From: a virus | Lineage: Duplodnaviria > Caudoviricetes | DNA: 28,229 nucleotides | Reading direction: 5' to 3' (one strand) | IMG/VR virus record: IMGVR_UViG_3300030329_003526 | Coordinates: 1 to 28,229 of that record | Shown: piece after piece, positions 6,047 to 28,066 of the stretch | How the letters are laid out: every line of letters starts with the position of its first letter | Numbering within the stretch: the first letter of the stretch is position 1 | Translations under genes and position numbers: made by a program | Notes under the pieces: generated by a model | The model's input: only the letters and a program-made list of their open reading frames with translations | Databases searched by the model: none | Told to the model about the DNA's origin: nothing

Positions 6047-7450
6047 ATGGGAAGAAAATATGGCGATATATATGTAGACACTTCTACAATGGGTACTATA
6101 GATAGAGTTCAAAATATATTATCTCAAGCACAACGAATGAGACATGCTGAATCTAATCAGCAATTTATGGAAGATACTAGGAATCAATTATTAGCTGCAG
6201 AAAATGCTTTAAATAAATGGAAATCGTATACAACAGATGATACTAGTATTTTCAATAAAGATATATCTAATCAGCAATTTAATTACCATACTGATTTAGA
6301 AACTGCCTGGGAGGGTTATAGAAAAGAAATGTTAGCAAATGGCATAACATATCCTGATAAAGAGGCTTTTACTAGAAAGTTTCATGATAATTTTACACAG
6401 AGAATAATGACTGTTGCAAGAAAGTTTAGAGCTCAAAGGGAACAAATTAGAGCTAAAACTGGAATAGAGGATAATGTGCTACTTAATAAATATATGCAAA
6501 AAAATCATAATGCAGATAATCTATACCTTCAGACTTCAAGTATTTTAGGAAATGATGAAGCTCAACAAATATTAGGATATTCTCCTCCTGTTAAAAGTAA
6601 AACTTGGAAAAAGTGGGCTCAAGATTTGCTTATGAAGCCTAGCTATACTGACCCAGAAACTGGCGAAACTATAGGTGGGGGTATGAGGGGAGTATTAGGC
6701 TTTACTATACCTGGTATGGCGTTAGGCGCATGGCAACAATATGGAGAATTTAGTAGGAATAAAGCAGATATTCTCAAAGAGGCAAAGGCTAATCAAAATA
6801 GACATAAGCAAACATTCCAAAAATATAAAAAAGGAAAAAATAAAGGCAAATTTAAATTAGATAAAAAAGGTAATAAAATTCCATTAGGTACTAAACCTGG
6901 TAGTGGTATATCAGCAGCTGAGTTTATGAAAAAATATAATTTAAGTAAATCAGAAGCATTCGGAGCTGATGGCAAGCCTACTAAAGAATTTAATAAGATA
7001 TTAAACCAAAAAACATTACCAGAAACTAAAACAGGAAAAGTCCTTCGAGCTGGAAGAAGAAACCTTAAATCTTTAGCAGGTTACGGTATAGGCTCAACTC
7101 TTGGAGGAGAATTAGGTGAATTAACTGGAAGCGAAGAAGCAGAATTTGTTGGTAGTGTAGGTGGGGGAATAGGTGGTGCTATTGGTATGAGAAAATTATG
7201 GAAAAAACTTCAAGACCCTAACACTATTAAGAGATTAAAAGCTGTAGCAGCAAAATCAGGTAAAAAAGGTGCAATTAATAAAATATTAGCAAAATTAGGA
7301 GTATCTGCGCTAGGTTATGTAGGTCCTCAGGCGATAGAGCCTTTTTCAACTGCAGTAGGAGCCGCAGGGACAGCATGGGCTATGTATGATATATATAAAA
7401 TAGCAAAAGAAGTTCCAGCACTTATGGATATTTTATCTGAAGGAGATTAA
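6047..7450 (+). CDS. Probable internal virion/ejection protein with C-terminal membrane-type helices
   Basis: 467 aa, RBS AAGGAG; C-terminal GSVGGGIGGAIG zipper and hydrophobic AVGAAGTAWAMYDIY; stop overlaps the start of the giant gene. Confidence 0.5.
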   Translation: MGRKYGDIYVDTSTMGTIDRVQNILSQAQRMRHAESNQQFMEDTRNQLLAAENALNKWKSYTTDDTSIFNKDISNQQFNYHTDLETAWEGYRKEMLANGITYPDKEAFTRKFHDNFTQRIMTVARKFRAQREQIRAKTGIEDNVLLNKYMQKNHNADNLYLQTSSILGNDEAQQILGYSPPVKSKTWKKWAQDLLMKPSYTDPETGETIGGGMRGVLGFTIPGMALGAWQQYGEFSRNKADILKEAKANQNRHKQTFQKYKKGKNKGKFKLDKKGNKIPLGTKPGSGISAAEFMKKYNLSKSEAFGADGKPTKEFNKILNQKTLPETKTGKVLRAGRRNLKSLAGYGIGSTLGGELGELTGSEEAEFVGSVGGGIGGAIGMRKLWKKLQDPNTIKRLKAVAAKSGKKGAINKILAKLGVSALGYVGPQAIEPFSTAVGAAGTAWAMYDIYKIAKEVPALMDILSEGD

Positions 7451-10400
7451 TGTCATTACCAACAAACTGGCAACCCAGTTATGATGAAGAGCGTACAAGA
7501 TACCTTGTTGATAGATATAAAGGACAATCACATCTTTTAGGTAAAGAGGGTGAGGCTGAGCTACAGCAACATGCTGAAGCTTATGGTATTCCTTTTTATA
7601 CAGGTGATTTTTCAATATTAGAAGCTATTAAGCAGGCTGGAGCAGGCTTTGTAGAAGGTTTTACTACTCTTAATATAGCTGACCACCCAGATAATGAATA
7701 TGAACAAATATTTCGCAACCTAGGACATTTGGCAGGTTTTGCACCTGGTATTATAGCAGGACCTGCTAAATTACTTCCAGCTAAGTGGATAGGGGCTCGT
7801 ACACTTGCAGCCTCTACAGCTAGATTAAAATCACTTCCGATGCTCGGTGCTGATGTTATAGAAAAATATAGCAAACAAGCTATTCGTTCTGCAGGTAAAG
7901 GTTTTGTAGGTAGAAGCGATGCTATGAAAACTACAAAAAACTTTTTACTTGGAGATAAAGCTAAACATATTATGCAAGGAGCTTTTCATTTAGGTACAGC
8001 ATCTGCTTTATCTTCATGGCAGGGTGGTGTAGACCAAATGTTAGAAGCTGCAAAAGGTGGTGCCGTAGCTGGGGGTGTTTTTAGAGCAATAGGAAACCTA
8101 AGCCCAGGTACCAGTGCACATGAAAGAATGGGAAAAGCTATGGCAGGCTCACTATTTATGGGCTTACCAGCTACAATGAGAGGAGCTACTACCCCTGAGC
8201 AAGTTTATGAATATGTAATGGGTGCTTATTTTGGAGGAAATGAAGTATCTTGGACTAGAGCTAAAGCTGGTAAATTTGTTAAAGGAATGCAGAAATGGGC
8301 TACTGATAAAAATACTAGGCAAGATGCTATTAAATCAGGAATGGACCCTGAGTTTCATCCTAAATTTGATGCATTACCTGAACAGGTCAAACCTCTTGTA
8401 AAAGAAGAAGCTGCAAAAGCATTTAATCCTCCTGAAGTAAATATAGCTAATAATATGGCTTATGAATTAGCTACTAAACTAGGACTAACTGGCCATTTAA
8501 AAGAAGCTGAATTAATAGCTGAAGGCGCTAAACCTACTGGTGAATACAGAGATGGTGAAGCAGTATATAGGTTTAATGAATCTCTTATAGCTGAAAAATT
8601 TAAAACATTTCAAACATCTGGTGGAACAAGAGGTGATAATGTATTTGCTAAAGAAGCAGATAAAGTTGGCATACCTACTGTGCATTATGGGTTTGGACAG
8701 AAAGGAAGACGAAGTAAAGCAACTGGTTTTCATAGAATATTAGATGCAGCTGAACTGCAGGAAGCAGAAGTACAACTTAAAAAAGCTGAAACTGTACTAA
8801 AAAGAGCTTCTAAAAAGGAAAGTGAAGATGTTAGAAACTTACGTCGTTCTAATTGGTATAAAGTAAAATGGGCAGATTCAGTATATGTTATTGGTAATTT
8901 TCAAAAAGGAAGACATCAATTAGCTGGAATGCCTGGTATTGCTGCTCAAATGGCTATTAATAATGGTAAAAAGGTATTTGCTTTTAGTCAAAAAGATGGT
9001 AGATGGTTTGAATGGAGAGGTGCAGCTCGTGGGGGAAAAGGCACTTTTATAGAAGCAGGTAAACCTCCTAGACCTACTATGAGATTTGCAGGAATTGCTG
9101 ATGATAAAATATCCCATAAAGGAAAACAGGCGATTAAGACGCTTTTTTCTGAAAACTATGTTCAAGTACCATCAGTAACAGAAAGTGTCTCTAAAGGGCG
9201 AAAATCGAAGAAATTAGAGCAAAAGGTGTCAGCCTTAAGGGATGAGTTAGATGTTACCCAAGAATTATATAATGAAAAAAAGGATGATATTTTACTTAAA
9301 AAGGCAGCAGGTCAAGATACTACTGTTGAAGAAGTTGAACTGGCTCAAATAGCTCAAGAAAGTAAAAGTCTAGCTGAAAGACATAATAGGTTAGTTAATT
9401 TTGGACTTGCTACTAGAACCATTACTCCTGAAGTTAAAAATAAAGAAGGAATATCAAACGAGATATCCGATATATCTGATGTTGATTTTGAAGGTCCTGT
9501 TAATTTAGAGGTTGGAAAGGTTCCTCTGCAATTTACTTCAAAGCATTTAGATAAAGTATGGTCTGGGGATATTGATGTATTACAACAACAGAATGTTAAA
9601 CGGGAACTATCTCAGCTGGTTGAACAAACCTTGCTAAAAACTGAAGATGGTACACCCATAACTCAAGGAGGTAATCCACTCTATTTAAGGCCTGGCTCTA
9701 AAGAGAATTTATCTGAGAGATGGGCAGATGCTGTAGAAAGAGAAATAAAAGACACGTATGATAGCGAATTTACATTAACTAAAGAAGCTAGACGTGACAT
9801 GCGTAAATGGATGACTAGAAAGAATCTTGGAAGAATAGTTACTCATTTACAATCTGATGGTAAAACAATCAGAATGATGGAAAATCCTAATGCACCTATT
9901 ACTTTAGCTGGAAATAGAAAACATCAGGAAGAACCTTTAAAGCGTATTGAAGAAGCATATATGGAAGCAGGAGGTCAATCTCCTGCAATAGAGCCTATTT
10001 ATATGGTTCTTGACCACGTTACTATTGAAGGTAAAAGAGGTAGAAGGGATTTAGATATATCCGATTATAGAAATAAGAATCCTGAAGAATTTAAATCAAT
10101 GATGACTACTGCTATGGTAGACATGGGTAAAAGAGGATATTATCCTTTAGGTGGTAAAGGTGATTCTGACAGGATTATATGGGCAAAACATCATCCTCAA
10201 ACAAATACATTGACTGAAAGTCAGATAAAATCTACTTTATCAAAATTTAAATTAGGTAAAGGTAGAGATGTAGATGAGAATTACAATTTATCTGAAAAAG
10301 AGTTTAATAAAATGGTATTATCTAATGTTTATTATGACTTACAGATGAATGGTATGCAGATTAATGATGCTAATATTAAGACATTATTAACACATCCTGG

Positions 10401-13400
10401 TTTCATTAAAGATTCAGCAGCTTTTAACAAAAGACAACAAATATGGATGAATAATGCTTGGTCTGGTGATGTTGAATTTATTAAAAAACAGGGTATTAAG
10501 TTAAATGATGCGGATAATTATAATTATCTAATAGTAAAGGATTTGTCAGATATTGATGCAAAACTTGATTCTAAAGTGTCGAATTTAAAAAATAGTCAAT
10601 TACCTGAAAATGTTGATGGTGCAATTATAGTCTCTGATAAGGTTCTTAATGCTATTAATGCTGATTTTGGTAATCCTCCATCTGGTCAAAATAAATCATT
10701 TATTGTTTCACCTAATATTCAAAAAGGAGCTTTATTAGGTAAATATATGATGCATGCAGCAGGACCTAAAATGAGTAAAGCGATGGATGCTAAAGGTGTT
10801 CATATGATTATGCAGGAATCTGCTGTAAAGCAAAGAGGATTGCGTAAAGTAAATGATTATTCTATTGAAAAAGGTGAATTAAAATTTACTGGCTTTATGT
10901 ATAATGATTTATCACCTGAGCATATTAAAGGTAATTTTGGTGTATATGGTAATGAGCACTTTATTCAAAATCAACGTATTCCTAAACAGCTATTACAAGC
11001 TTTATTACCTTCTGCGTGGAATCCTGTTAAACCTGAAGTAATAGATGATGCTTTTAAAAGTATTATTAGAGAAAGATGGCAAGGTAAAACTGAAGTTAAT
11101 AATCAAGTTAGAGAATATCTGGATAAAATTAAAACAACAGATATTTCTCAAGCAGAACTTTTAAGGCTTGAAAAAGAAATTATAAATAGAATAGAAGATA
11201 TTGGCGTAATGGAATTGGTTGATGCCATGAAAAGTGAACATGCTCCTAATCTGAATGAAGCTATTTATAATAAAATATTAAAATTAGATAAAAACAATTC
11301 AATAGAAGATTTAATTGAAAAGAATGCTAATCCTGCTGAATATGATGCTTATAATAATACATTAACTGAATTCAATTCTATTGTTGATAGAGTATTATTA
11401 AATGCGAATGAATGGGCTAGTTCACAAAGAAGGAATGGTATTGATGCAAATGTAACATCAGTTTATATGCATAAATTTGTTAGAGATTTTCGTATTAAGG
11501 CTGTTCAAAATTTTATCATTAATTCAGCAACTAAACCTAAGCGTGATAATTCTGCTGTTGGGTTTATGCGGCCATATGATAAGGCTATGAGATTAAATCT
11601 AGATGGAGCTAATCCTAGGTTAAAAGAATTAGAAAAGAATGATGAAATCTTCTTTTTAGATAATGCTTTTAAAGAATTATATGTAAAACTAGACATGCCT
11701 GGTAAACCTAATTTAAAAGGAATGAAACTTGAAGCTTTATGGAATAGGTATGAAAAAACAAAATCTAAAAAAGAAAAAGAATATATAGAAGATGTATTTG
11801 AAGCTATATCAGTTCGTGTTCCAATGGATTCAATGTCTGGTGCACAGATTTTAAAATTTGCTGGTTTTACTGGAAGAGAAGGTCATGGTATATTAATGCA
11901 TGGACGTTCCATGAGAGCTCAAGGCGGTGCTGATTTAGACGGAGATAAGTCTTTCGTCTTTTTTGGTGGTAGAGGAGGAATGAAAAAGGAATGGAAAGAT
12001 GCTTATAAAAATAATAAAAAGGAATTCTATTATACAGAAAAAGGTATAGAAAAAATTGGTGACAATAAAGGTTCTATTAATCCTTTTACAAATAAACCTT
12101 ATAGAGAAGAATTAGCTATAAGCCTTAGTAAAGAAGAACGTGCATTTTATACTTCTAAAGAAGCACAATATTCTCCATTAGAAAGATTAAGAATATCTAA
12201 TGCAGCTGTTGATGGTCGTAATCAACTTGGACCTGCTGTTGTAGCTAAACAGGTAATGTCGGCAGCATATAATGCTATTGAAGCTAATGGTGGTACAGAT
12301 TATTTAACCATTAGAATGAAAACTGGTAAAAAAACTAAAAAAGGTAAACCAGAATATGGTCTTTATAGATTAGAATTAAACTTAAAAAATGATAAAAAAT
12401 CTAAAGAACATCAAAGGAATCTAGGTAGAGCTCAAATAGGTTTAGCTTCTGACCCTTTAGATGAACTTGGATTGAGAGGTAATGATGCTTGGTTTAAATC
12501 TATGTGGCAAGCTCATTTTAATATTAAAGATGTTAAAAGAATGAACCCTAAAACTAACAAATTTAATTTAAAGGTTGATAAAACGTTTATTAATAAAAAT
12601 TTAACGGCTGAAGATTTAACTTCTAATAATTTAAGAAAAGGTGTTTATGGTAGTTTAATGAAGATAAATCAAGCTTATTGGGGTAAGAATTGGGCTGAAG
12701 GTAGAAAATTCTCCATGGAAGAGATACTTGATAAAGGAGAAGCTATTAGGGGACTTTCAGATGCTAGTATTGATGCTAGTTTTTTAGGTAGAACAGGTCA
12801 ATTATTAAGAGGTTTAGATTGGTCTGATTCGGTTTTTGGTAAAATAGAACATAAAAATTTAGATAAAGCTTATGCAGAACATAATGCTAGATTATCTAAA
12901 TACGATGGTTTAAAAAATATATTAGGTAGAAGTACTTTTAGAGTTGTTCCTGGTAATATTGTTAATAATGTAATGAATCCAAAATATTCCTTATGGACTG
13001 CAGAAGGTGTTGTCAATACAGCTTCTAATTTAACTGATTTTCAACGAGTTATTAAAGGAACTAAATATCACCATCAGGTACATAGAAATTTATCAGATTA
13101 TTTTAATGTAGAAAAGAAGAAGATTAAAAATGCTGGACATGATAAACATTTTAATGCTCGCAGAGATTTACTTATTGAAATGAGGAAGGAAGCAGAAGAT
13201 TTTGTAATTAATGACATGACTGATATAGCTACAATTATGGAGGTTTCTAGGATATATGAGGATATGGTCAATAATAAAGATAAAGGATATATACAACTTG
13301 AAAATGTTAAGGAAAAACAATTAAATATAAATCAGGTTGTTGAGATGATTCATAAAAAGGTGGAATCTTTAAAACGTAATTCTTATTTAATGGCTAGAGA

Positions 13401-16400
13401 TAGGGGTAAAATGAAGAGTTATGAAGCTCTTATTGATAAGGTCGATGTAGAATCTAATCCTGGTAGAAAGTTAGTTAAACTTTTAGAAGCGGAACTTGGT
13501 ATTGGTAGAAAAGTAAGGACTGTTGGTGAAGATAGAACTGCAGAATTAGACCAAATGCAAATTGACAATAAAATTATTGAATTTAAACAAAAACTTACTC
13601 CAAGAGGTCAGAAATTATTTGACCATTTAATGCTAGGCTCTTTGAATAGAGGAGAGATTAATGCTATTAATGAATTTGAAAATAGTGTTACAAAATGGGA
13701 CTCGATGACAAGGGATGTAATTAAAGGATTAAGAAAAGCTGCTGCAAGAACTTCAATTTCTAGGTTAGGATTTAATAGTAATGCTATACCTGATGTATCG
13801 ATTAAAGAACATATTGGAGCATTTGCTAATAATTTTAAACAAACATATAGACCCTTAAGTAAAGAACAATCTAAAATAGTTAGCTCTGAAGTTGAAAATT
13901 ATAAAACGAGAATAGAAACTTTAGATACAGGTTTAGTTGAAGCTTTAACTCCTTCAGGATATCAAGGATTAAAAGCAGGTAAACTTGATGCTGAAAGTAA
14001 GAAAATTGTTACTGAAATAGCTGATTTAATGGCTGATTTACCTAATTATCAAAAAGAATTATTACCATACATTGTGCGTAATCCTGAGATAATAGGAAAA
14101 GATTTGAACGCAATGAATAAACAGGATTTTCTGGTTTTAAGAAATTATCTTAATAGTTTAAAAGGTGGTACATGGTTGCAAAGAATGTTTTCAAAACCAG
14201 GGCCAGTAGAATTAAGTAAAAGGCATCATGCACTGTTTCCTAAAACTGTTAATAGAGAACTAATGAGAGATGATTTAGTAATGATGAAGGAAAAAGGTTT
14301 CTTTATTGATGGTACTGGACTCCCTAGAGTTGGTCAAATAGTTAAACCTACCCATTATGTAGATATTGTTCAAAATTTTATAGCTAAAATGAATGGTTCT
14401 GCTGTAAATGTATCTGATAAATATATAAAACAATTTAATGAATCAATGTTATTTCATAGTGGTTTAGAGGATAGTGCTGGTTTATGGGAAATAGCTATAC
14501 GTAAAAGAGAAGCCTCTGAACATGCTATTAAAGTTATATCTGATAAATATAAAGCAAATAAAACTAGTCGTGAAGCAGCTATTAATGAACGAAGACTTCA
14601 ATTGGGTAAAGCTGAACGAGAATATGATTGGGCAAATAAAAAAAATAAAGAATATACAGTTACAGTTGATGGTGTACGTCAAACTTTAACAGGTACAGAA
14701 ATTGTTAATCGTATTAATACTGAATTAACAGGATTATTTAAAGAGATGATGACTTTTATTCATGGTAAAGAAGGTGCTTTAGATGCTTATCAATATGATA
14801 CTTGGGAATTAGGTCAACGTGTAAAAAGATATGATTATAAAACTTTTATGAAAGATTTACAGAATCATATTGCTGGAAATACTCCTAAAGGTTGGATTAA
14901 GGAAGGTATTGCTGATGTACCATCTTACTTTGGTGTTGATGGGTTAAGATTAATGGCTCGTGAAATGCAATTAGATATGATTAAAGACCCTGAGGTTAGA
15001 TTTAAAATAATGCAACAACCTGCTACTGAATTTATTACAGGCAATCTAGGAGAATCTTATTTCCCTCATATGTTTTTTGATAAAGTAACATCTAAAAAGC
15101 TTATGAATGATGCTATGAAAAAGATATTAGAAACTCCTGAATCACAAATGACTGAAGAACAAAAAAGAACTGAAATTAGAAAATTATATTATAAGAATAA
15201 ATCTCTTGGTGGTGAAATGCGTTTTCAAGATTTAGAACAATGGGATTTAGTTTATGATGTTCTTGATGATATTGCACAAAATAAAAAAGTATCTAATGAA
15301 AAGATTAAATGGTTTAATGCAAATGAACGTTCTGGTTCAATGAAAACTAGAGAAGTTAATATGGGAGGTTATAGTACAGACCCTGCTGTAATTGAATCAT
15401 ATGTAAGGTCATTATCTAACACTTATCATAGACAATTATCTCAAATGTTTGGAAGATGGTCTATTGATAAAATGTACGGTCAAATGAGAGGTAAATGGGG
15501 GCAAGAACAAACTACTGCATGGCAGAATTTTATGCGTTTATTTGTTCAAGATGCAATAGGTAATCCTTCGATTATACCTGAAAGATTATATGAAGACCCT
15601 AAAATGAAGATTAAAGGAACTCCTTATGGTTGGTGGGCTGATAATAGGGTAAAGAAAAGATTAAATAAAATAGGTGAATCTCTTGGTATTGTTGATAAAA
15701 AATTACCTGAACAACTAAGAGGTGTAGATGAGGAAACTTTACGTCATTGGTCTAATTTAGAGGCACAATATGAAATGGCTACATTATTAGCACATCCAAA
15801 ATCAATGGTTGCTAATATTTTTGGAGGTACTTCACATACAATACAATCAGCAGGTTGGGGTAATTTTGTTAAAGCTAGAACTCCTAATTTTTTAGCTAAA
15901 ATTAATCCTAATTGGAAAACAATGAAAGATGTAGATGATTTTGTTGTAGCTCAAGGTGTTCTTCCTGAATACCTGGTGTATGAAATGGGTTTACAAAAAG
16001 AATTCCAAAATACTAAAGGAAAAGGTTTTTTAGCAGATTTAACATCTAAATTAGCTAGAGACCCTGAAATGTCTGAACAATCCATAACTGATTTAGCAGG
16101 TAAATACGGTTTAAAAGATAAAGTAATGAACTTTGCTTCTAAATTTATGTCCGTTCCTGAAAGAATGTTACGTAGAGATGCCTTTATGGCACATTATGTA
16201 CATGCTTGGGAAAAGTTTGGTGGTGCTATTAAAGAGTATGACCATCCATTTTTAATAGAAATGGCTAAAAAAGGTGTAAAAGCTACTCAATTTTTATATA
16301 ATGCTCCTTTTAGACCTGCTTTTGCTCGTACTGCATTAGGTAAGATAATGACTAGGTTTCAATTATGGGGATGGAATTCAGTTAGATTTAGAAATGATGT

Positions 16401-16914
16401 TCATAGGCAAGCTAAAATATATGGTTTTACACCAGGTACTGAAGCCTGGAAACGATATGAAAGAACAATGCAAACAGATTTATTTGTTTTTGCTCTTGCT
16501 AATGTATTTGCATATTCATTATTTGAAAGTAATCTTCCTCAACCATGGGGTTGGATACAAGATTATTCAGATTGGATATTTGGTGATGAAGGTGATAGAG
16601 ATAAAGCGTTTTATGGGGCTTGGCCAAAGCAAGTTGCTCCTCTTCAAATGGTAACTCCTCCCGGCTTGCGTTTGGTCGGCCCCACTTTTAACGCTATGCT
16701 AAACGATGATTGGTCTAAGGTTAGTCAATATTATGCATATACAATGCTTCCATTTGGAAGAATGATACGTGATGTAAATCCTTATGCTAAAGGTAACTTG
16801 ATAGAGAATCCAATGCGTTTACCAGAAAAGTTATTTGGGCTTCCTGTAATGCAATTACAAAGAAATATAACTGAATGGAAAGAAGAAAAGCCTGAAAAAT
16901 TATATCCAGGCTAA
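7450..16914 (+). CDS. Giant virion protein with single-chain two-barrel RNA polymerase (putative virion RNAP) and N-terminal SLOG-like domain
   Basis: 3154 aa. Ordered motifs NVDGAIIVS (D1056), LLGKYMM, MQESAVK, RVPMD (R1456) and GGADLDGDKSFVFF (D1495-D1497-D1499, nt 11932-11946) parallel the DG / KG / RPSxxK / RxP / GxDxDGD motifs of QDE-1-like and crAss-like polymerases. Confidence 0.8.
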   Translation: MSLPTNWQPSYDEERTRYLVDRYKGQSHLLGKEGEAELQQHAEAYGIPFYTGDFSILEAIKQAGAGFVEGFTTLNIADHPDNEYEQIFRNLGHLAGFAPGIIAGPAKLLPAKWIGARTLAASTARLKSLPMLGADVIEKYSKQAIRSAGKGFVGRSDAMKTTKNFLLGDKAKHIMQGAFHLGTASALSSWQGGVDQMLEAAKGGAVAGGVFRAIGNLSPGTSAHERMGKAMAGSLFMGLPATMRGATTPEQVYEYVMGAYFGGNEVSWTRAKAGKFVKGMQKWATDKNTRQDAIKSGMDPEFHPKFDALPEQVKPLVKEEAAKAFNPPEVNIANNMAYELATKLGLTGHLKEAELIAEGAKPTGEYRDGEAVYRFNESLIAEKFKTFQTSGGTRGDNVFAKEADKVGIPTVHYGFGQKGRRSKATGFHRILDAAELQEAEVQLKKAETVLKRASKKESEDVRNLRRSNWYKVKWADSVYVIGNFQKGRHQLAGMPGIAAQMAINNGKKVFAFSQKDGRWFEWRGAARGGKGTFIEAGKPPRPTMRFAGIADDKISHKGKQAIKTLFSENYVQVPSVTESVSKGRKSKKLEQKVSALRDELDVTQELYNEKKDDILLKKAAGQDTTVEEVELAQIAQESKSLAERHNRLVNFGLATRTITPEVKNKEGISNEISDISDVDFEGPVNLEVGKVPLQFTSKHLDKVWSGDIDVLQQQNVKRELSQLVEQTLLKTEDGTPITQGGNPLYLRPGSKENLSERWADAVEREIKDTYDSEFTLTKEARRDMRKWMTRKNLGRIVTHLQSDGKTIRMMENPNAPITLAGNRKHQEEPLKRIEEAYMEAGGQSPAIEPIYMVLDHVTIEGKRGRRDLDISDYRNKNPEEFKSMMTTAMVDMGKRGYYPLGGKGDSDRIIWAKHHPQTNTLTESQIKSTLSKFKLGKGRDVDENYNLSEKEFNKMVLSNVYYDLQMNGMQINDANIKTLLTHPGFIKDSAAFNKRQQIWMNNAWSGDVEFIKKQGIKLNDADNYNYLIVKDLSDIDAKLDSKVSNLKNSQLPENVDGAIIVSDKVLNAINADFGNPPSGQNKSFIVSPNIQKGALLGKYMMHAAGPKMSKAMDAKGVHMIMQESAVKQRGLRKVNDYSIEKGELKFTGFMYNDLSPEHIKGNFGVYGNEHFIQNQRIPKQLLQALLPSAWNPVKPEVIDDAFKSIIRERWQGKTEVNNQVREYLDKIKTTDISQAELLRLEKEIINRIEDIGVMELVDAMKSEHAPNLNEAIYNKILKLDKNNSIEDLIEKNANPAEYDAYNNTLTEFNSIVDRVLLNANEWASSQRRNGIDANVTSVYMHKFVRDFRIKAVQNFIINSATKPKRDNSAVGFMRPYDKAMRLNLDGANPRLKELEKNDEIFFLDNAFKELYVKLDMPGKPNLKGMKLEALWNRYEKTKSKKEKEYIEDVFEAISVRVPMDSMSGAQILKFAGFTGREGHGILMHGRSMRAQGGADLDGDKSFVFFGGRGGMKKEWKDAYKNNKKEFYYTEKGIEKIGDNKGSINPFTNKPYREELAISLSKEERAFYTSKEAQYSPLERLRISNAAVDGRNQLGPAVVAKQVMSAAYNAIEANGGTDYLTIRMKTGKKTKKGKPEYGLYRLELNLKNDKKSKEHQRNLGRAQIGLASDPLDELGLRGNDAWFKSMWQAHFNIKDVKRMNPKTNKFNLKVDKTFINKNLTAEDLTSNNLRKGVYGSLMKINQAYWGKNWAEGRKFSMEEILDKGEAIRGLSDASIDASFLGRTGQLLRGLDWSDSVFGKIEHKNLDKAYAEHNARLSKYDGLKNILGRSTFRVVPGNIVNNVMNPKYSLWTAEGVVNTASNLTDFQRVIKGTKYHHQVHRNLSDYFNVEKKKIKNAGHDKHFNARRDLLIEMRKEAEDFVINDMTDIATIMEVSRIYEDMVNNKDKGYIQLENVKEKQLNINQVVEMIHKKVESLKRNSYLMARDRGKMKSYEALIDKVDVESNPGRKLVKLLEAELGIGRKVRTVGEDRTAELDQMQIDNKIIEFKQKLTPRGQKLFDHLMLGSLNRGEINAINEFENSVTKWDSMTRDVIKGLRKAAARTSISRLGFNSNAIPDVSIKEHIGAFANNFKQTYRPLSKEQSKIVSSEVENYKTRIETLDTGLVEALTPSGYQGLKAGKLDAESKKIVTEIADLMADLPNYQKELLPYIVRNPEIIGKDLNAMNKQDFLVLRNYLNSLKGGTWLQRMFSKPGPVELSKRHHALFPKTVNRELMRDDLVMMKEKGFFIDGTGLPRVGQIVKPTHYVDIVQNFIAKMNGSAVNVSDKYIKQFNESMLFHSGLEDSAGLWEIAIRKREASEHAIKVISDKYKANKTSREAAINERRLQLGKAEREYDWANKKNKEYTVTVDGVRQTLTGTEIVNRINTELTGLFKEMMTFIHGKEGALDAYQYDTWELGQRVKRYDYKTFMKDLQNHIAGNTPKGWIKEGIADVPSYFGVDGLRLMAREMQLDMIKDPEVRFKIMQQPATEFITGNLGESYFPHMFFDKVTSKKLMNDAMKKILETPESQMTEEQKRTEIRKLYYKNKSLGGEMRFQDLEQWDLVYDVLDDIAQNKKVSNEKIKWFNANERSGSMKTREVNMGGYSTDPAVIESYVRSLSNTYHRQLSQMFGRWSIDKMYGQMRGKWGQEQTTAWQNFMRLFVQDAIGNPSIIPERLYEDPKMKIKGTPYGWWADNRVKKRLNKIGESLGIVDKKLPEQLRGVDEETLRHWSNLEAQYEMATLLAHPKSMVANIFGGTSHTIQSAGWGNFVKARTPNFLAKINPNWKTMKDVDDFVVAQGVLPEYLVYEMGLQKEFQNTKGKGFLADLTSKLARDPEMSEQSITDLAGKYGLKDKVMNFASKFMSVPERMLRRDAFMAHYVHAWEKFGGAIKEYDHPFLIEMAKKGVKATQFLYNAPFRPAFARTALGKIMTRFQLWGWNSVRFRNDVHRQAKIYGFTPGTEAWKRYERTMQTDLFVFALANVFAYSLFESNLPQPWGWIQDYSDWIFGDEGDRDKAFYGAWPKQVAPLQMVTPPGLRLVGPTFNAMLNDDWSKVSQYYAYTMLPFGRMIRDVNPYAKGNLIENPMRLPEKLFGLPVMQLQRNITEWKEEKPEKLYPG

Positions 16915-20663: not shown

Positions 20664-20876
20664 TTAAGAGTAACCTTTTTCAGTTATTGTTATCTCTATG
20701 GATGGTTTCCATGCTAATGAAATTACTAATTCAAGCCTATAAATACCAAGTAAAATAGATTTGTATGGACCGAATCCATCGTCTCCTCTAAGAACTCCGA
20801 ATTTAAATAACGAGAATAATGTAATTATAAAGCCATTTTCTAACTGTTGTAAGTTAAAGATATAACCTTTATTCAT
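20664..20876 (-). CDS. Hypothetical protein
   Basis: 70 aa, AAGGAG RBS, overlaps the primase-helicase stop. Confidence 0.6.
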   Translation of the reverse strand: MNKGYIFNLQQLENGFIITLFSLFKFGVLRGDDGFGPYKSILLGIYRLELVISLAWKPSIEITITEKGYS

Positions 20877-22650
20877 GTGTTTCAGTTCTCCTTAATCTAA
20901 AACTAGGATGCCATTCTAACTCTGTTTTAAATAATTCACCATCAGTGTTTTTAAACAGATTGATTTCTTTTATTGTATCTTCAGGTTGGCCATTTATTCC
21001 CAGTACTTTTCTACTAGCATTTTCTATTGCTCCAGAACCTTTACCTGCGTAAAGGTCAAGAACTTCATTTCTACTATAATCACGAGCTACTTGAGATATT
21101 TGGATAATAATAAGGTCATAATTAACTGCCATATTTGATAGATTGTGTGATATATATTTAATTTGTTCGTACTCTCCTTTTATATGTGGAGGTGTTTCTA
21201 TTAAATCAATATAATCTACAATCACTACAGCAGGATTTAATTCTCGAATTTTATCTTTAATTTGTTCAATAGTAGGTGACACAGTTTGAACTGATATGTG
21301 TCCTAATTCATCTTTATGTTTTTTAAAGATAGTTTTGTATTTAGCATTTGCCCTTTCTTTTGAACAGTTGGCTACAATTTGCATATGCCTTCTATGCATA
21401 TACCAAGCTGATAACTCTAAAGAAATAAATAAAGTAGGGATTTGCCATTCTTTAACTATTTTATTATTAACAAAATCAAAGCCTAATGCAATATTTTGTG
21501 CTAGTGTTGTTTTATTAGAACCAGTAGGTCCAAAGATTGTTACTAGTTCACCAGGATAGATAGTTGTATCTATATGTGGAGGTAATCCAAGCATTTTACT
21601 TAATTCAATGCATCTACCACTAAAGTCAGCAGTTAATCTTGATTCTAATTCTTCTTGTAATGTATGAGAAGTCTTAACATCGATTAAAAAGTCTTTACGT
21701 TTAAAGTAAATACATTTAGTTTGACAATGTTCTTCCATGAATTTGTCTTTACATGAATACTGATAGCCTTTATTATATGTTTGTTCTATATTATTTATAA
21801 GAACCTTTTCGTCTAAGCTATTGTTATTCCAATGCAATAATGAAACTTTAGCAAATTCACTAGGAATGCCATTTCTTCTAAAATAGCTTGCTATTCTCAT
21901 TGATATATTATGCCTTGAACCACTTTGAGGCCCTAGATTTAACATACGTTGAACACAAGGAACTACTTTAGTATTTTCATTAACAGGTCTTAACTCTGCT
22001 ATCCTGGGTGTTTTAGTATTTACAGCTGTTTCTAATTCACCTTCTCCTATTAAACCACTGTAAATAAATTCTAAACGTGGAGTTTTTGCCATTTCTAGAA
22101 TTTCTTCACATTTTTTAGTCATAACTTCTTGACAAGTTAGTGGTATTTTATATAGTCCTGTTTTCTGATTTTTAGTATGAGGTACACGATATATAGCTGT
22201 TCTTATATATACCATATCATCAATTCCAGAAAGCAACTCTGTCATAGTTTGTCGAACTATAAAAGGTAATTCAGGAGATGGTTCAAAATTAAATACAGAA
22301 TTTGGTATCATTAAATGATATCCAGAACCACTAAAGAAGGGTTGTACAGATTTATTAGGATTTAATCCATATTCTTCCAGCGTTAGAATATATCCAACTG
22401 TCCTTCTTAATGTTTCTTCATTAGAATTATCCCCTTTATCGATGTCAATTAAGATTTTATCAATCCATCTTGGCCCATGAAAGTTTTTAATCGAACCTTC
22501 CTTTTCAACTAGTAACTTTGCATCATCATTATATAAATATAATGAACGATAAAGGGGTTTTTCTAAATTAATGTAAGAAGCTAAGTCTTTCCGATTAATT
22601 ATGTGTCCACGATTCCTCGGAGTATCTATAGCAATCTCTACATATTTCAC
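20869..22650 (-). CDS. Primase-helicase fusion (AEP/Prim-Pol N-terminus, PriCT-like linker, DnaB/RecA-like helicase)
   Basis: AEP motifs IDID, FSGSGYH, RVPHTKN; GSRHN plus a Cys cluster; helicase motifs GPTGSNKTT, FISLEL, VIVDYID, ISQVAR, GSGAIE. Confidence 0.85.
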   Translation of the reverse strand: MKYVEIAIDTPRNRGHIINRKDLASYINLEKPLYRSLYLYNDDAKLLVEKEGSIKNFHGPRWIDKILIDIDKGDNSNEETLRRTVGYILTLEEYGLNPNKSVQPFFSGSGYHLMIPNSVFNFEPSPELPFIVRQTMTELLSGIDDMVYIRTAIYRVPHTKNQKTGLYKIPLTCQEVMTKKCEEILEMAKTPRLEFIYSGLIGEGELETAVNTKTPRIAELRPVNENTKVVPCVQRMLNLGPQSGSRHNISMRIASYFRRNGIPSEFAKVSLLHWNNNSLDEKVLINNIEQTYNKGYQYSCKDKFMEEHCQTKCIYFKRKDFLIDVKTSHTLQEELESRLTADFSGRCIELSKMLGLPPHIDTTIYPGELVTIFGPTGSNKTTLAQNIALGFDFVNNKIVKEWQIPTLFISLELSAWYMHRRHMQIVANCSKERANAKYKTIFKKHKDELGHISVQTVSPTIEQIKDKIRELNPAVVIVDYIDLIETPPHIKGEYEQIKYISHNLSNMAVNYDLIIIQISQVARDYSRNEVLDLYAGKGSGAIENASRKVLGINGQPEDTIKEINLFKNTDGELFKTELEWHPSFRLRRTETHE

Positions 22651-23261
22651 AGTGCTTCATCAAGAGAAAATGGCAAATCAGTAGCAGTTTCAGGTTTTGG
22701 AGCTTCTGTTTCAGCTGGTGCTTCATTGATATGACCATTTGTTTTCATCCATTTTACGTATGATGCTAAATCATTTCTTCCATTACTTGTATTTGGAAAG
22801 ATTCTCCAGAGAACTGTATTATAAGCTTTACCATTTTTCTTATTTTTCTCTTTATAAATATAACCAAGGTATGGATATGAATGTAATTTATCAGTATGAT
22901 GGTCATTTAGATATTTAGCTATATCTTTTACAGCTTTACCATCTGATTCTTTTTCCCATTTACCCTTTAAATTAATACCAACTTCACATCCTATATCATC
23001 AAAGAATTTATACATGCGATTCAATACTGTACCGCCTGATACGTTTCCTTTAGCATCTTTTTCTACAGAGCCACATATTCTTAAATTACGAGAATATTCA
23101 CTATCTTTAACAGCTATTTCCGCATCAATATAGATGTCAGCCCAATCAAAGTCTTTTGATTTATCTGTAAATCCTTTGATTCCTATTTCACAAATACCAG
23201 TCCATCTATTGCTAGCACCTGTTGTTTTACTACCAGTACCTTTTGGTTTGAATAAGGCCAT
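22647..23261 (-). CDS. Probable single-stranded DNA-binding protein
   Basis: Located between a Sak4-like ATPase and the primase-helicase; acidic flexible C-tail with DLPF. Confidence 0.5.
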   Translation of the reverse strand: MALFKPKGTGSKTTGASNRWTGICEIGIKGFTDKSKDFDWADIYIDAEIAVKDSEYSRNLRICGSVEKDAKGNVSGGTVLNRMYKFFDDIGCEVGINLKGKWEKESDGKAVKDIAKYLNDHHTDKLHSYPYLGYIYKEKNKKNGKAYNTVLWRIFPNTSNGRNDLASYVKWMKTNGHINEAPAETEAPKPETATDLPFSLDEAL

Positions 23262-23262
23262 T

Positions 23263-23928
23263 TTAACTCTCCTTTACATAGATTTTTTTCCAATCAAATG
23301 GAAAGATTTTACCTTTAAGATGTTCACAGCGACTACCTGCTTCTAAAGCTACTCCTGATTGAAATGAAACCATTAGCTTATCATCTTCATCTCTAAACAT
23401 ATAACCAATAGCATCAGCTTGAGCCATTAATTGATTCTTTAGTTTACCTGATAAGTCTAATGATTCAGGTTCAACAGCAGTTGAATTATCTACAGCAGCA
23501 GCTGTCTTTCTGTGTCCAACAATAATCGTTTTTGAACATAAACTTTGAAGCTTCTTGATATTATTTAATACGCGTTCTCTAACCATTCCAAAACCTTTAC
23601 CATAAGGTAAATCTGCAATGTCTTCAACGCCCATTTCTCTGCATACATCTTTAGATGTCCATTCAACTAGTTTGTCGATTGTGTCAAGTGCAAAGATATT
23701 ATAATCATGACCTTCTGATGCCTCCTTGTAAAAAGAAAGCAATTCCTCTTTACTGTTTACTCCATGGAAATAACCCTCGAGCATATGGGACCCAGATTCG
23801 GTGTCAATAACTAAGCAATCTGAAAGTTTACTTAACATAGTAGTTTTACCGACCTTAGGTGCCCCATATAACAAGAGTATTTTTGGATTAACAGAGATAG
23901 GTTTACGCTTGGCTTTTTTTAATGCCAT
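23263..23928 (-). CDS. AAA_24 / Sak4-like phage P-loop ATPase (recombination/annealing)
   Basis: LLLYGAPKVGKTT Walker A, IDTESGS, ALDTID Walker B, PYGKGF, ADAIGY, EAGSR. Confidence 0.85.
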   Translation of the reverse strand: MALKKAKRKPISVNPKILLLYGAPKVGKTTMLSKLSDCLVIDTESGSHMLEGYFHGVNSKEELLSFYKEASEGHDYNIFALDTIDKLVEWTSKDVCREMGVEDIADLPYGKGFGMVRERVLNNIKKLQSLCSKTIIVGHRKTAAAVDNSTAVEPESLDLSGKLKNQLMAQADAIGYMFRDEDDKLMVSFQSGVALEAGSRCEHLKGKIFPFDWKKIYVKES

Positions 23929-23979: not shown

Positions 23980-24636
23980 TTATTTGGAATGACCAAAGAT
24001 TAAATTAGGCAATGCAGTAATAAATCTTTTAGGAAATTCTTCTCCTATTAAGAGTTGTTTAACTGCAAGCGAAATGAAACCTCCTGCCATATTAGAACAG
24101 TAGGATGTCGCCTTGGCGTTACAAGGGTCCTCCGAAGCATCTGCATCTGAATACCAGGTATCTTTATATTCTTTAAGAGTTGGATTCTTCAACACATACT
24201 GTTGGTACTCCTCCGCCCCCATTCGTCCATCTATAAGGACAAATGGTCTGTTACGCTTAGTCAGCGCTGCAGTCGCGGCTTCAAGACGACTATCCATACT
24301 GTCGAAGCCCAAGATTACAATGTCGTCTTCGCTGAGAGGCTTGACGAATGCCGAGAACCGCCCTGGTTCTATGGTAACATTGACTCTTGGGTTTATTGCT
24401 TTTAAATGCTTACTTAAAGCATCAACTTTAGTTTTACCAATATCTTTATAAATATAATGAGAAACACCTATATTTTGTATTTCTACACTATCTAAATCGT
24501 ATAAAACAAAGTGTTCAACTCCCATCCTGCAGAGTTGTGTGGATGCAGAGCTACCTATAGCCCCGCATCCTAATATGTGAAAGATTTTATTACCAAAATC
24601 TTCTATTAAACCTCTACTTCTTTCATTAATTTCCAT
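23980..24636 (-). CDS. ThiF/E1-like ubiquitin-activating enzyme
   Basis: ERSR Arg finger, ILGCGAIGS nucleotide-binding loop, YDLDSVEIQNI, KVDAL, INP, GFDS, IDGRMG, candidate catalytic Cys in DPCNAK; start revised to MEINERS after AAGGA. Confidence 0.9.
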   Translation of the reverse strand: MEINERSRGLIEDFGNKIFHILGCGAIGSSASTQLCRMGVEHFVLYDLDSVEIQNIGVSHYIYKDIGKTKVDALSKHLKAINPRVNVTIEPGRFSAFVKPLSEDDIVILGFDSMDSRLEAATAALTKRNRPFVLIDGRMGAEEYQQYVLKNPTLKEYKDTWYSDADASEDPCNAKATSYCSNMAGGFISLAVKQLLIGEEFPKRFITALPNLIFGHSK

Positions 24637-25579
24637 AATGGTCCTTTCTAACATTAGACGTTTGAAGAGTTGCTTGTACAACTGGTTGAATATTTTCTAG
24701 AACATCTTCAGGGGCAACATATATTTCATGTTTCCAACTAGATAATTCTCCTCTAGTAAATTCAGGTATTTCAAGATTGTATTTCTTTATACCCTTATTT
24801 AATTCAGAAAACATTCTATTTATTTCCTTACATTGCTTTTTAGATATATTATTAGGAACTTTATCTATAACTTTTGTTATATATTCATATAATTTATCTA
24901 TTTCACTATCAGGAACTAAACTTACATCAACTTCCTCTTCATCATCATAGAAACTATTATAAGAACCTATACCATAGGATTTATTATAATGGTCAACCTC
25001 TTTATTTTGCTGTGCTGCCCAGAGGTTAGATTGTTTACCATTATATCCATAGGTAGTTACAACAGTTCTTTCAGGTTTATTACAAAGCTCAATAACTTCT
25101 TTGTTAATACTTTCTGGAACTTCTTGTCCGATGATATTTAACTTTACATCTTTATCTAATTCAATAGGTTTGAAATATTGTACTCTTAATTTATATTCTC
25201 TATTAAGATTAACAACCAATGATAAAGAAAAGTCATTTGTCTTTTGACTTAAGATTGTATCAACGTCAGTTCCTGACCAAAATGCTTGCATTGTATGATG
25301 ACTGTGCCACCAGCAATGTCTAACTTTATTGCCATATTTCTTATATAATTTATCATAATATATAGCTAGTTCTGTAGCATCTAAATCACAAGTACCATTA
25401 CTTACTTCCTGTTTTAATATAACAGGTTCAATCAGTTTAAATTGCCCATCTTCTTCTATTACAGTCAATTGTCCACCTATTTCTGCTTTTAATTGAGTAT
25501 AAGCTGATTGAGCATAATGAATGATTTTATTCCAATCTTTAATTGATATATGGAATATATCATCTTTTTCTTCTTTCAT
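24626..25579 (-). CDS. JAB/JAMM (MPN+) metallopeptidase, deubiquitinase-like
   Basis: AEIGG catalytic Glu; WWHSHHTMQAFWSGTD fits HxH-x7-S-x2-D; SLVVN; long acidic C-terminal extension; start revised to MKEEKDD. Confidence 0.9.
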   Translation of the reverse strand: MKEEKDDIFHISIKDWNKIIHYAQSAYTQLKAEIGGQLTVIEEDGQFKLIEPVILKQEVSNGTCDLDATELAIYYDKLYKKYGNKVRHCWWHSHHTMQAFWSGTDVDTILSQKTNDFSLSLVVNLNREYKLRVQYFKPIELDKDVKLNIIGQEVPESINKEVIELCNKPERTVVTTYGYNGKQSNLWAAQQNKEVDHYNKSYGIGSYNSFYDDEEEVDVSLVPDSEIDKLYEYITKVIDKVPNNISKKQCKEINRMFSELNKGIKKYNLEIPEFTRGELSSWKHEIYVAPEDVLENIQPVVQATLQTSNVRKDHYGN

Positions 25580-25590
25580 ACATTTCCTTT

Positions 25591-27489
25591 CTAATTGCAA
25601 TAACAATTTTTATTTATTATTAACTTAGCAAAGCCTATAGGATTAATACTTTCGGTACTACCTGCTTCCATCAATGTAATGCCAGCTATATGTACTATCT
25701 CATTCATATTAGCTTTGTTTGTCATTCTAAAAGCATAATCCCTATTACTTTCATCATGAGTCTTCTTAATAGGTTTAGAACTTGCATAATCCATCCAACG
25801 TCCTTCATTATGAAGCATTATTAAATCAGTAAAATGTATTCTTTTTGCTATTTTAAATAATAAAATAGCTAATTCTACTACATCATCCCAATTGTCAGAA
25901 TCATAAATACCACCTCTTATTCTATCTATTAAATCACAAAATACAGAAACAAATGAAGTAAGTGAAACAATATTACCATTAGTTATCCTGCCTTGAAGAT
26001 TTAAAACATATTTTAATTTGCTTTCCATAGTTCCTCTATTAACACAATTCCACATTTGATAAATAATACATTCAACAGCTGTTTGTATATCATCCATCTC
26101 TGATTCATTAAGTGCAAATACAGGGTCAATAATTTGCTGTGCGATTTCTTCTGTTATACCTTCAGGAAGATTCTTCTCTATATAAGATATTTCATCATAT
26201 ACACCACAATCTTGCACTAATTGACAATTTGTACAATATTTATTTACGAAAAGCTCATAATCATCAAATCCTTCATCTATTACTCTTCTACAAGTACTTT
26301 TAGATGTAGCTAATAAGGCTTTTAAGTTATCATCCCAATCAAGAGGCATGCCAATATGATGTGTTTGTGGCTGATTTAAAGGCGTTGTGTTGCCTAACCT
26401 GTATGTTTTAGCCCAAATATTAAGAAGTGTCTTTAAATGGCTAAAATTGGCCGTTAAAAGAGCAATCATGATATCATCATCTAAATCACCAAAGCATATA
26501 TTACCTCTATTATATGAATTATAACGAAGGTTACCATCTCTATGTACAAAAGGGTGTTTTAATCCATTAACATGTGGAAATACAATACCATGATTAGCAA
26601 TACGCCTTAAATTTAAGTTGCGAAACAATTCATGCGCATCTCTATTGGCTGGAAATGATTGAATTCTTTTATAATTTACTATCATGTCATATATAGTCAT
26701 GCTAAAATTTACAATCATATCTCCAAATGGAAGTGTGACTAATGTCTCATACCTATTTTTCTTAAATGTAGAATATTCAATATTGATATCCTTTAATGCA
26801 ATACTAATGTTAATCCACCATCTTTTTGGGTCAATATTTGTACCATACACTCTAAGCGCTTCAGGTGTCGTAATTTCACCAATCCTATTAATCCATAACC
26901 TGTTTTCATTGAATTTAATATTGTTTATATCCTCAAATATTGGGTGTATTGGCATGTCCCAAGTTGGTTCAAAGACAGGTATTCTTCCTGCATTATATTG
27001 CCTTGTTCTTCTAGCAGCCTCATCACTACGTTTATGATTTGTAGTGTAATATGGTAATGGAAGTATATTAATCTCCATATCATCATATTCTTTTAATAAT
27101 AAAGGTGTTATTTCACTTAAAGCTAATTGACCTTGTTTTTTAGTATATTCTTCATCTAAACTAGCCTTTTGAGCTCTAAATTCCTTCAATTGTGCATCAA
27201 TTTTATGCATATCTTCTACACAACTAGATAGGCCATATCTATCATAACGTGTTAATCTTTTAATAGTATTAGCACCTTTAGGTTTTTCCCAATGAGGGAA
27301 TAATGAGCGTACTATTTGACCTTTTAATCTTTCATATGAACCTGGTCTCCAACGAGCATTTTCATTAAATTCTAATTTAATACCATATCTTTCCGTAAAA
27401 CGCTCTACTTGTCTTAAAAATGGTTCAACATTTGATAATCTTTTAGTATCAATGTTAGGCATTGATTTAAAGTTTATTCTTTCTTGCAT
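25591..27489 (-). CDS. Large prokaryotic E2 (UBC-fold)-like conjugating enzyme with Cys-rich Zn module
   Basis: KHPFVH...RGNICFGD matches the E2 HPxV...GxIC signature (Cys codon 26494-26496); followed by C-x19-CTNC-x5-C; lies between Ubl and JAB; start revised to MQERIN after GGAG. Confidence 0.7.
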   Translation of the reverse strand: MQERINFKSMPNIDTKRLSNVEPFLRQVERFTERYGIKLEFNENARWRPGSYERLKGQIVRSLFPHWEKPKGANTIKRLTRYDRYGLSSCVEDMHKIDAQLKEFRAQKASLDEEYTKKQGQLALSEITPLLLKEYDDMEINILPLPYYTTNHKRSDEAARRTRQYNAGRIPVFEPTWDMPIHPIFEDINNIKFNENRLWINRIGEITTPEALRVYGTNIDPKRWWINISIALKDINIEYSTFKKNRYETLVTLPFGDMIVNFSMTIYDMIVNYKRIQSFPANRDAHELFRNLNLRRIANHGIVFPHVNGLKHPFVHRDGNLRYNSYNRGNICFGDLDDDIMIALLTANFSHLKTLLNIWAKTYRLGNTTPLNQPQTHHIGMPLDWDDNLKALLATSKSTCRRVIDEGFDDYELFVNKYCTNCQLVQDCGVYDEISYIEKNLPEGITEEIAQQIIDPVFALNESEMDDIQTAVECIIYQMWNCVNRGTMESKLKYVLNLQGRITNGNIVSLTSFVSVFCDLIDRIRGGIYDSDNWDDVVELAILLFKIAKRIHFTDLIMLHNEGRWMDYASSKPIKKTHDESNRDYAFRMTNKANMNEIVHIAGITLMEAGSTESINPIGFAKLIINKNCYCN

Positions 27490-27506: not shown

Positions 27507-27705
27507 TCAAGGAGAGGCAGGAACCACTTGCACTGAGTTGCGTTGGGTCAGAAACCTCTCCTTGACGTCTTAATAAAATAACATTTCGTATCAGTGATTT
27601 GTAAGAGTGGCCTGACTATCTACTCGACTTATGATTCGTCAATCATTTACGTTAGTTATTAGTGCTGCCTGTCTTTAAATGTAATACTATTAATCATTTT
27701 ATTAA
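27507..27705 (-). other. Two tandem long-stem RNA structures between Ubl and E2 genes
   Basis: Perfect 11-bp inverted repeat tcaaggagagg/cctctccttga (27507-27517 / 27555-27565); 13-bp stem with 2 GU (27570-27582 / 27693-27705) enclosing hairpin atgatt-gacg-aatcat (27631-27646). Confidence 0.6.
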
Positions 27706-27715
27706 TTCTGGTTAA

Positions 27716-28066
27716 TTACTTTATAAAAGGTGTATTAAGAAGTTGATTAATAATGCCACCTTTCTTGTTACCATCTACGTAACTTACTCTACTACCTGTT
27801 TCATTTTCCATATCCCATCTACCATCTGCATCTTTTACCATTGATTCTACTGGTGTTGAGTCATGAGCTGGAACTCCATCAACAATAATATCACCTGATG
27901 GTAAATCTAAACCACTAACACCTGTTTCAGCTGTTGGTTTACGCAAATCAGCTACAGTTAGTGTTTGTGATTCATGTTTTACAATTGCAACGGCTGGTGT
28001 AATGCCATTTCTTATATATTTAATTGCACTTTCGTACAATGTTGGTCCTGCAACGACGTCTGTCAT
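27716..28066 (-). CDS. Ubiquitin-like (beta-grasp) protein precursor with KKGG and 12-aa C-terminal extension
   Basis: TVADLR helix start, IIVDG strand, DSTPV, GSRVSYV last strand, then NKKGG-IINQLLNTPFIK; first gene of the E2-JAB-E1 cluster; RBS AGGT. Confidence 0.75.
   Translation of the reverse strand: MTDVVAGPTLYESAIKYIRNGITPAVAIVKHESQTLTVADLRKPTAETGVSGLDLPSGDIIVDGVPAHDSTPVESMVKDADGRWDMENETGSRVSYVDGNKKGGIINQLLNTPFIK

Follow-up and report, generated by a model that had tools for sequence, protein, structure and literature searches.

A predicted multidomain E2-like protein in a putative ubiquitin-like conjugation operon of a marine phage

The E2-like gene and its place in the operon

The minus strand of the virus record IMGVR_UViG_3300030329_003526 (Duplodnaviria; Caudoviricetes), whose 28,229 nucleotides (nt) we refer to as the window, encodes a 632-amino-acid (aa) protein resembling the E2 enzymes that take part in the conjugation of ubiquitin-like proteins (Ubls). 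Its gene is the second in an operon for a Ubl, an E2, a JAB peptidase, and an E1 (Table 1). Judging from sequence and predicted structure, we are fairly confident that this protein is an active E2; on balance, we also favor a phage E2 that works in a Ubl conjugation pathway without a separate E3, with the protein's own additions choosing the target. The record is linear and about 55% complete, and its sequence occurs in marine metagenome runs, among which no RNA datasets are listed.

We have kept the length of 632 aa because the alternative, longer start (TTG at 27510) sits within a hairpin upstream of the gene and because M1 aligns in 35/35 homologues. A contig from a separate study that spans 25941-26712, and hence the motif and the cysteine cluster discussed below, has 0 differences from the window.

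Relatives were collected with E2, JAB, and E1 as separate queries. The E2 query returned 23 full-length proteins, window protein included. With E1 as query, 334 viral stretches were confirmed and the 80 best retained; conservation was scored on a set of 55 non-redundant E2 homologues of 476-660 aa. The family is wider than the collected set, because six predicted viral proteins (423-592 aa) match the full-length E2 model (E 1e-17 to 6e-13). Genome contigs gave 4 matches, the sole close one being a 3.9-kb contig of a metagenome-assembled genome (MAG).

The order Ubl-E2-JAB-E1 holds in 56/56 records, with the E2 as second gene and the operon ahead of phage replication genes. A record was counted if its E1 scored E < 1e-50 and had 3.6 kb or more of sequence upstream; some of the 56 are repeat retrievals, and 37 distinct E2 sequences are represented among them.

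Table 1. Features of the E2-like protein, its gene, and the neighboring genes in the window
Feature	Positions	Strand	Basis or remark
Ubiquitin-like protein, 116 aa, KKGG at 101-104 plus 12-residue tail	27716..28066	minus	GG in 22/22
Conserved three-stem hairpin	27507..27565	minus	Ends 17 nt before E2 start codon
Multidomain E2-like protein, 632 aa, whole gene	25591..27489	minus	ATG 27489, stop 25591
N-terminal domain, residues 1-112, basic, helical, W47-x-P-G-x-Y-xxx-K56 conserved	27154..27489	minus	Alignment
Predicted UBC (E2) fold with insertions, residues about 113-403	26281..27153	minus	Model and fold matches
H312-P313, HPN-like motif; third residue F/Y, not N	26551..26556	minus	53/55, 55/55
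C332, predicted catalytic cysteine (GNIC)	26494..26496	minus	55/55
W359...P370-L-N372	26374..26415	minus	W, P, N each 55/55
Four-Cys putative metal site, C400-x14-39-C419-x2(4)-C422-x5-12-C428	26206..26292	minus	All four in 54/55
C-terminal domain, residues 437-632, acidic, helical, hypervariable	25594..26181	minus	Candidate target selector
JAB/JAMM peptidase, E33, H92, H94, S102, D105	24626..25579	minus	Invariant in 25/25
Minimal ThiF/UBA5-type E1, 218 aa, GxGxxG, R6, D47, K70, D112, crossover-loop C172	23980..24636	minus	Pfam ThiF, E 1e-21
Replication block: Sak4-like ATPase, unassigned 204-aa protein, primase-helicase	20869..23928	minus	PHROG matches; downstream of E1

Core fold, active-site motif and four-cysteine site

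An earlier note, made from the window sequence alone, had read an E2-like motif in the middle of the protein, and the homologues bear this out: C332, P313, W359, P370, N372, and C422 are invariant across all 55, and H312 is present in 53. The element W359...P370-L-N372 is one that we liken to the C-terminal PLN motif of classical E2s. A structural model of residues 110-436 (predicted local distance difference test [pLDDT] 82.6, predicted template modeling score [pTM] 0.84) matches UBC/RWD folds, albeit weakly (Z at most 4.2); the model of the full-length protein reaches a pLDDT of 73 and is low at both ends. The fold search (VIA) ran against 48,161 chains, and rows were sorted as UBC/UEV/RWD by title or from the known fold of the chain. 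Of the top 50 rows for the 110-436 model, 43 fall into this class—34 by title, 9 from the known fold of the chains—with 1 unclear and 6 other. A second search placed 19/23 rows in the class, including all 19 with Z of at least 2.9; 15 were so classed by title and 4, again, from the known fold.

The UBC alignments span model residues 1-294, which correspond to protein residues 110-403, and comprise a helix (113-132), a strand (138-143), a variable insert (147-220, 3-74 aa long across homologues), a long hairpin, and the loop from HP to Cys. Since that helix and strand belong to the UBC fold, the N-terminal flank shrinks to about 110 aa from the roughly 300 aa that the earlier note had placed ahead of the motif.

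Several observations weigh against the assignment as an E2. The UBC/RWD/UEV matches are weak (Z 2.8-4.2, best 4.2, root-mean-square deviation 3-5 Å), Foldseek found nothing in the PDB at E <= 0.001 for either model, and the PF14460 (Prok-E2_D) and PF00179 (UQ_con) profiles have no match in the virus record. In canonical eukaryotic E2s an HPN motif is followed by the Cys 10 residues after the His; the phage protein departs from this pattern, with HP-F/Y in place of HPN and a His-Cys spacing of 17-30 (35 sequences), not 10. Because the fold scores are weak and Foldseek is empty, the case for an E2 rests on the consistency of the match lists, the motif, and the operon. Taken together these strengthen the original call—an invariant motif, UBC-type fold matches, and a place between a Ubl ending in GG and a JAB and E1 with intact catalytic residues.

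Other searches drew blanks or gave leads. The E2 protein has no match in Pfam, NCBIfam, PHROG, or PADLOC, its 24 domain-only members have no relevant match in the profile libraries, PDB sequence searches returned chance matches only, and GenBank phages hold no match to the E2 or the JAB. Atlas language-model features of residues 215-436 lie nearest to Prok-E2_D clusters, many of them viral (score 0.86-0.89), which we treat as a lead only. In an alignment with the core profile, HP and C find counterparts in a cellular E2-like protein from a Nitrospirota MAG (locus L123), where the His-Cys spacing is 10 residues (E 3e-4 among 7 sequences). The fold search with the full-length model was taken up by generic helical matches to residues 453-567; the best of them, to a chain of sigma-factor region 2 (Z 6.0, rmsd 3.6, 80 aligned), lies below the meaningful level for helical bundles and was disregarded.

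Immediately after the UBC part come four cysteines, of which C422 is present in 55/55 homologues and C400, C419, and C428 in 54/55 each. The earlier note had called this cluster a Zn module; the four cysteines are real and conserved, but Zn is only one candidate, as the site would fit either one Zn or an iron-sulfur (Fe-S) cluster. The commonest spacing, C-x2-C-x5-C (18/54), resembles the Fe-S staple of Cas4/AddB. We consider the site a likely structural link between the UBC fold and the C-terminal domain.

A few divergent or partial sequences were also seen. The most distant E2 homologue (L122:392-2374) lies on a 3.9-kb contig that is binned as Nisaea and is too short for a host call; the catalytic Cys is retained in it, but H312 is gone, as are three of the four cysteines of the module. 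In L120:751-1605, an open reading frame (ORF) before the JAB has an E2-like C-terminus and an unrelated beginning, probably because the contig is chimeric; its E1 lies less than 3.6 kb from the locus start, which keeps it outside the 56-record count. Split or stand-alone UBC forms were considered and rejected: 9 of the 11 short matches are on contigs under 1.7 kb, and the four that were read are N-terminal fragments.

Flanking domains, target choice and rival readings

The two domains that flank the core differ in conservation and in charge. The N-terminal domain is as conserved as the UBC core (mean pairwise identity 0.30 vs 0.29) and has a positive net charge in 36/38 sequences. The C-terminal domain has a mean identity of 0.15, and its net charge is positive in only 2/38; detectably similar pairs number 52/703 for this domain and 596/703 for the core. 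The helical C-terminal domain of about 190 aa that the earlier note described is real, at about 200 aa, but its length ranges from 91 to 233 aa in homologues and it is modeled with low confidence. Across 11 close pairs, the ratio of nonsynonymous to synonymous substitution rates (dN/dS) is 0.36-0.72 in the C-terminal domain, which thus evolves faster than the core (0.17-0.44) and the N-terminal domain (0.11-0.53).

Of these parts, the hypervariable acidic C-terminal domain is the likeliest candidate for a target selector. That the extra domains supply target specificity, as the earlier note proposed, is an inference that fits this variable domain and not the N-terminal one, which is conserved as the core is. 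Speaking against it, positive selection on the C-terminal domain was not found (dN/dS < 1 in the 11 close pairs); constraint appears relaxed, so the variability may be drift. Swapping of C-terminal domains was also considered: the tree of this domain conflicts with the E1 tree, but the approximately unbiased (AU) test rejects the E1 topology for the N-terminal and UBC parts too, and the C-terminal alignment is unreliable, so we set the idea aside. No well-supported split in the trees of the N-terminal and UBC parts contradicts the E1 tree, which points to a core function that is vertically kept and tied to replication.

The chemistry of every step in the proposed pathway is taken from homology with the Bil and Bub systems. 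The JAB peptidase would trim the Ubl after GG; the minimal E1 would adenylate it and bind it through a thioester at C172; from there the Ubl would move to C332 of the E2, which would attach it to a target lysine with no E3 involved. The substrate would most likely be bound by the hypervariable acidic C-terminal domain together with the variable inserts, while the conserved basic N-terminal domain would likely bind a partner that does not vary, for example nucleic acid or a protein of the phage. If the E2 is active, we put the chance that its own additions choose the target at somewhat better than even. A fuller version, which we consider less likely than not, would be a self-sufficient E2 of a widespread marine phage family, in which an exchangeable, fast-evolving C-terminal domain picks the target among host or phage proteins, the Fe-S or Zn site acts as a hinge, the conserved leader hairpin sets E2 levels, and tagging is core to the replication operon. 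If true, it would be a virus-run counterpart of Bil defense and a natural programmable single-protein ligase.

The characterized bacterial Ubl conjugation systems (Bil, Bub, CBASS Cap2) are host-side. In the present family, phages seem to own the same chemistry, which is vertically kept beside replication genes, and the E2 is split into conserved and hypervariable parts; with such a split, target selection without an E3 could be probed by deleting or exchanging domains.

Other readings must be weighed against an E2 that selects its own targets. The E2 could be active and its flanks could serve localization, oligomerization, or regulation in place of substrate choice; the basic N-terminal domain would then bind DNA or its own leader hairpin, and tagging would strike whatever is nearby, or else the E2 or the Ubl itself. 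We judge this unlikely, although it would suit an N-terminal domain that is as conserved as the core and mostly positive in charge, the conserved hairpin just before the start codon, and a C-terminal domain that is only 91 aa long in one homologue and under relaxed constraint. Five related records that have no Ubl-E2 gap, and so no hairpin, nevertheless keep the W-x-PG motif, and the C-terminal domain is kept in 55/55 homologues with dN/dS < 1. The earlier note had proposed a fused E2-E3-like enzyme. In a strict version of this reading, the Cys module or C-terminal domain would activate the thioester as a RING does, or a second Cys would take the Ubl as in HECT. That there is no separate E3 agrees with what we see: the C3HC4/C3H2C3 RING pattern has no match in the six window frames or in the ORFs of the loci gathered by that stage, and Pfam gives no RING or HECT match on the 23 window ORFs scanned. 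The four-Cys module does sit directly behind the UBC fold and is kept in 54/55. A RING E3, however, has eight metal ligands in a cross-brace, whereas only four ligands are conserved here; H378 is present in just 33/55, no Cys after 428 exceeds 11/55, and no Cys other than C332 and the cluster is conserved among the 55 homologues, which excludes membership of RING and HECT/RBR. The fold-search rows of the model, moreover, derive from the UBC part. A fusion in the strict sense is not supported, and we regard the idea as improbable.

Two further readings depart from conjugation by the phage itself. In a sulfur relay, the Ubl would carry a thiocarboxylate and the E2-like protein, perhaps with an Fe-S cluster, would hand sulfur to nucleic acid or a small molecule. 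The only family matches of the Ubl are to ThiS, the E1 is ThiF-like, the operon adjoins DNA metabolism genes, and the C-x2-C-x5-C spacing resembles the Cas4/AddB staple. Yet the 23 window ORFs scanned contain no rhodanese, desulfurase, or PP-loop family, and the UBC fold and motif are conserved. In Iyer et al. (2006), E1, E2, and JAB genes with no rhodanese are a conjugation-type arrangement, and a sulfur relay seems very improbable to us. The module could also be a counter-defense decoy that soaks up or removes host tags of Bil or CBASS type, with the E2 as a sink; hosts do use Ubl conjugation against phages, according to PMC10557695 and PMC11601596. Against this, both Ubl and E1 are supplied by the phage itself, and the absence of conflict between the well-supported N-terminal/UBC splits and the E1 tree is as for a vertically kept core module, so we give the decoy only the slightest credence. 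An E2 in its own phage-encoded conjugation pathway remains the reading that we prefer.

Operon partners and comparison with known systems

Set against the pattern of a beta-grasp Ubl, a beta-grasp fold with Gly-Gly at its end, the Ubl shows GG in 22/22 and weak ThiS matches, below cut-off, in 12/22 members (best E 0.0015) and none for the window copy, and it has no PDB sequence match. Of 45 distinct Ubls, 6 stop at GG and 39 have a tail, by a crude rule; these 39/45 would need trimming because residues continue past GG. In five loci (L006:637-1191, L046:2081-2650, L093:2288-2878, L106:2713-3336, and L114:2465-3079) the Ubl carries, fused past its GG, another protein of about 100 aa that JAB cleavage would set free. 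The JAB family matches are weak (Prok-JAB E 0.006, PADLOC JAB E 0.002, both below cut-off); besides its catalytic residues it has two additional invariant cysteines, C64 and C166, plus C89. The E1 has GxGxxG, R6, D47, K70, D112, and C172 invariant in 38/38 and contains no Zn-type CxxC pairs; C24 and C180 are invariant besides C172. The order of the replication block is the same in related loci, and the location of the operon at the head of replication genes suggests tagging during phage DNA replication, on phage replication or host proteins. Counts of sigma-70 promoters and terminators are at chance level.

The leader hairpin ends 15-28 nt before the E2 start in 25/25 closer relatives and is built of a basal stem of 10-14 base pairs (bp), two internal loops, and an apical stem. 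Shuffled sequences reach an 11-bp stem 1.6% of the time, and 9/10 consensus pairs show two-sided changes. A model of the hairpin has one strong match in 35/38 sources (by construction for the training set) and no significant match in 23 distant sources; a similar long stem is visible by eye in 8/19 distant loci, and Rfam holds no match. The hairpin may serve as a translational operator or be processed by an enzyme of RNase III type. Repeated (T)CACGAA-like motifs, which may be promoter or protein-binding sites, occur in the Ubl-E2 gap (window 27570-27715) of many relatives.

Among the closest known systems is BilABCD, which as described in PMC10557695 shares the order Ubl, E2, JAB, E1, a Cys-based E1 and E2, the lack of an E3, a Ubl precursor, and a long divergent loop before the E2 Cys. 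For BilB, which has no E3 to rely on, that paper proposes that targets are recognized through a divergent loop, and it cites the Bil structures PDB 8TYZ/8TZ0. Bil is described there as a host-encoded antiphage defense with an IAD-AAD-CYS E1, whereas the E1 of the phage operon is a single 218-aa ThiF domain; the phage E2 is 476-660 aa long, carries an N-terminal domain, a four-Cys site, and a variable C-terminal domain, and has its His before the Cys, not after. The phage operon would work like Bil, with the shared gene order, Cys chemistry, and lack of an E3, but it is set apart from membership by its E1 architecture, the size of its E2, and its location on a phage.

For the next comparison we take PRTRC to be the same as operon class 6d. 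The phage operon has no PF14460 match, and the PRTRC ThiF profile reaches 23 bits where its cut-off is 145. As described in PMC1779556, class 6d resembles the phage operon in its stand-alone Ubl, E2, JAB, and E1 genes; its E2s are without the classical His, however, which the phage E2 keeps in 53/55, and its extra alpha-helical gene has no counterpart within the phage operon. Bub (6E), as described in PMC11601596, shares a homodimer-type minimal E1, JAB trimming of the Ubl, and the lack of an E3, but it forms oxyesters on Tyr (E1) and Ser (E2) and has gene fusions and BubE, in contrast to the Cys nucleophiles and separate genes of the phage. On these comparisons the phage operon is neither 6d/PRTRC nor Bub.

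Among eukaryotic proteins, UBE2O is an E3-independent large E2 with an E2/E3 hybrid role. Like the phage protein it has a UBC domain embedded in a larger protein, and UBE2O chains are among the fold matches (Z 2.9-3.3); the match is limited to the UBC part, is no better than for other E2s, and leaves the flanks unrelated.

A like-ordered cassette lies among the replication genes of the cultured phage crAss001 (gp79-gp78-gp77-gp76; MH675552.1; L126:1247-5657). Profiles match gp76 as E1 (E 7e-28), gp77 as JAB (2e-7), and, weakly, gp79 as Ubl (0.004); an H...C motif is present in gp78 (444 aa), but the protein shows no similarity at a detectable level to the E2 family of the window and has no four-Cys module. 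In order from gp79 to gp76, the annotations are hypothetical, hypothetical, metalloprotease, and ThiF (thiamine biosynthesis). Apparent ownership of the conjugation chemistry by phages suggests that the label "thiamine biosynthesis" on such phage ThiF genes, including that of crAss001, is a misannotation. The E1 is matched by 83 GenBank phage records, mostly of Bacteroides and Flavobacterium phages, and in the crAss-like phage cr106_1 (L127) the place of the Ubl is taken by a gene whose product does not resemble an intact Ubl.

Our literature search, limited to freely available main texts, found no description of this E2 family or of a phage-borne Ubl-E2-JAB-E1 operon; a 2011 survey of prokaryotic RING and E2 systems may list such loci. 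Text searches of PMC7886860 and PMC7824862 gave nothing relevant, and a 2026 gut-virome preprint mentions a phage UBA5-like fold.

A cellular analogue is found in the Nitrospirota MAG (L123:4711-8597), where a tandem two-copy Ubl, both copies ending in EGG, is accompanied by a 512-aa protein with HPHV-x5-VCLG and several C-xn-CxxC-xn-C repeats, then by a JAB, an ORF, and an E1. The ORF between JAB and E1 is presumably ArdA-like. The repeat and the phage four-Cys unit are alike by eye only, and the profile score is not significant.

Elsewhere in the window, on the plus strand, positions 7450-16914 encode a 3154-aa protein that has no family match and of which a 900-aa piece has no match among GenBank phages; it contains a GGADLDGD motif that we take to be like that of the double-barrel virion RNA polymerases of crAss-like phages.
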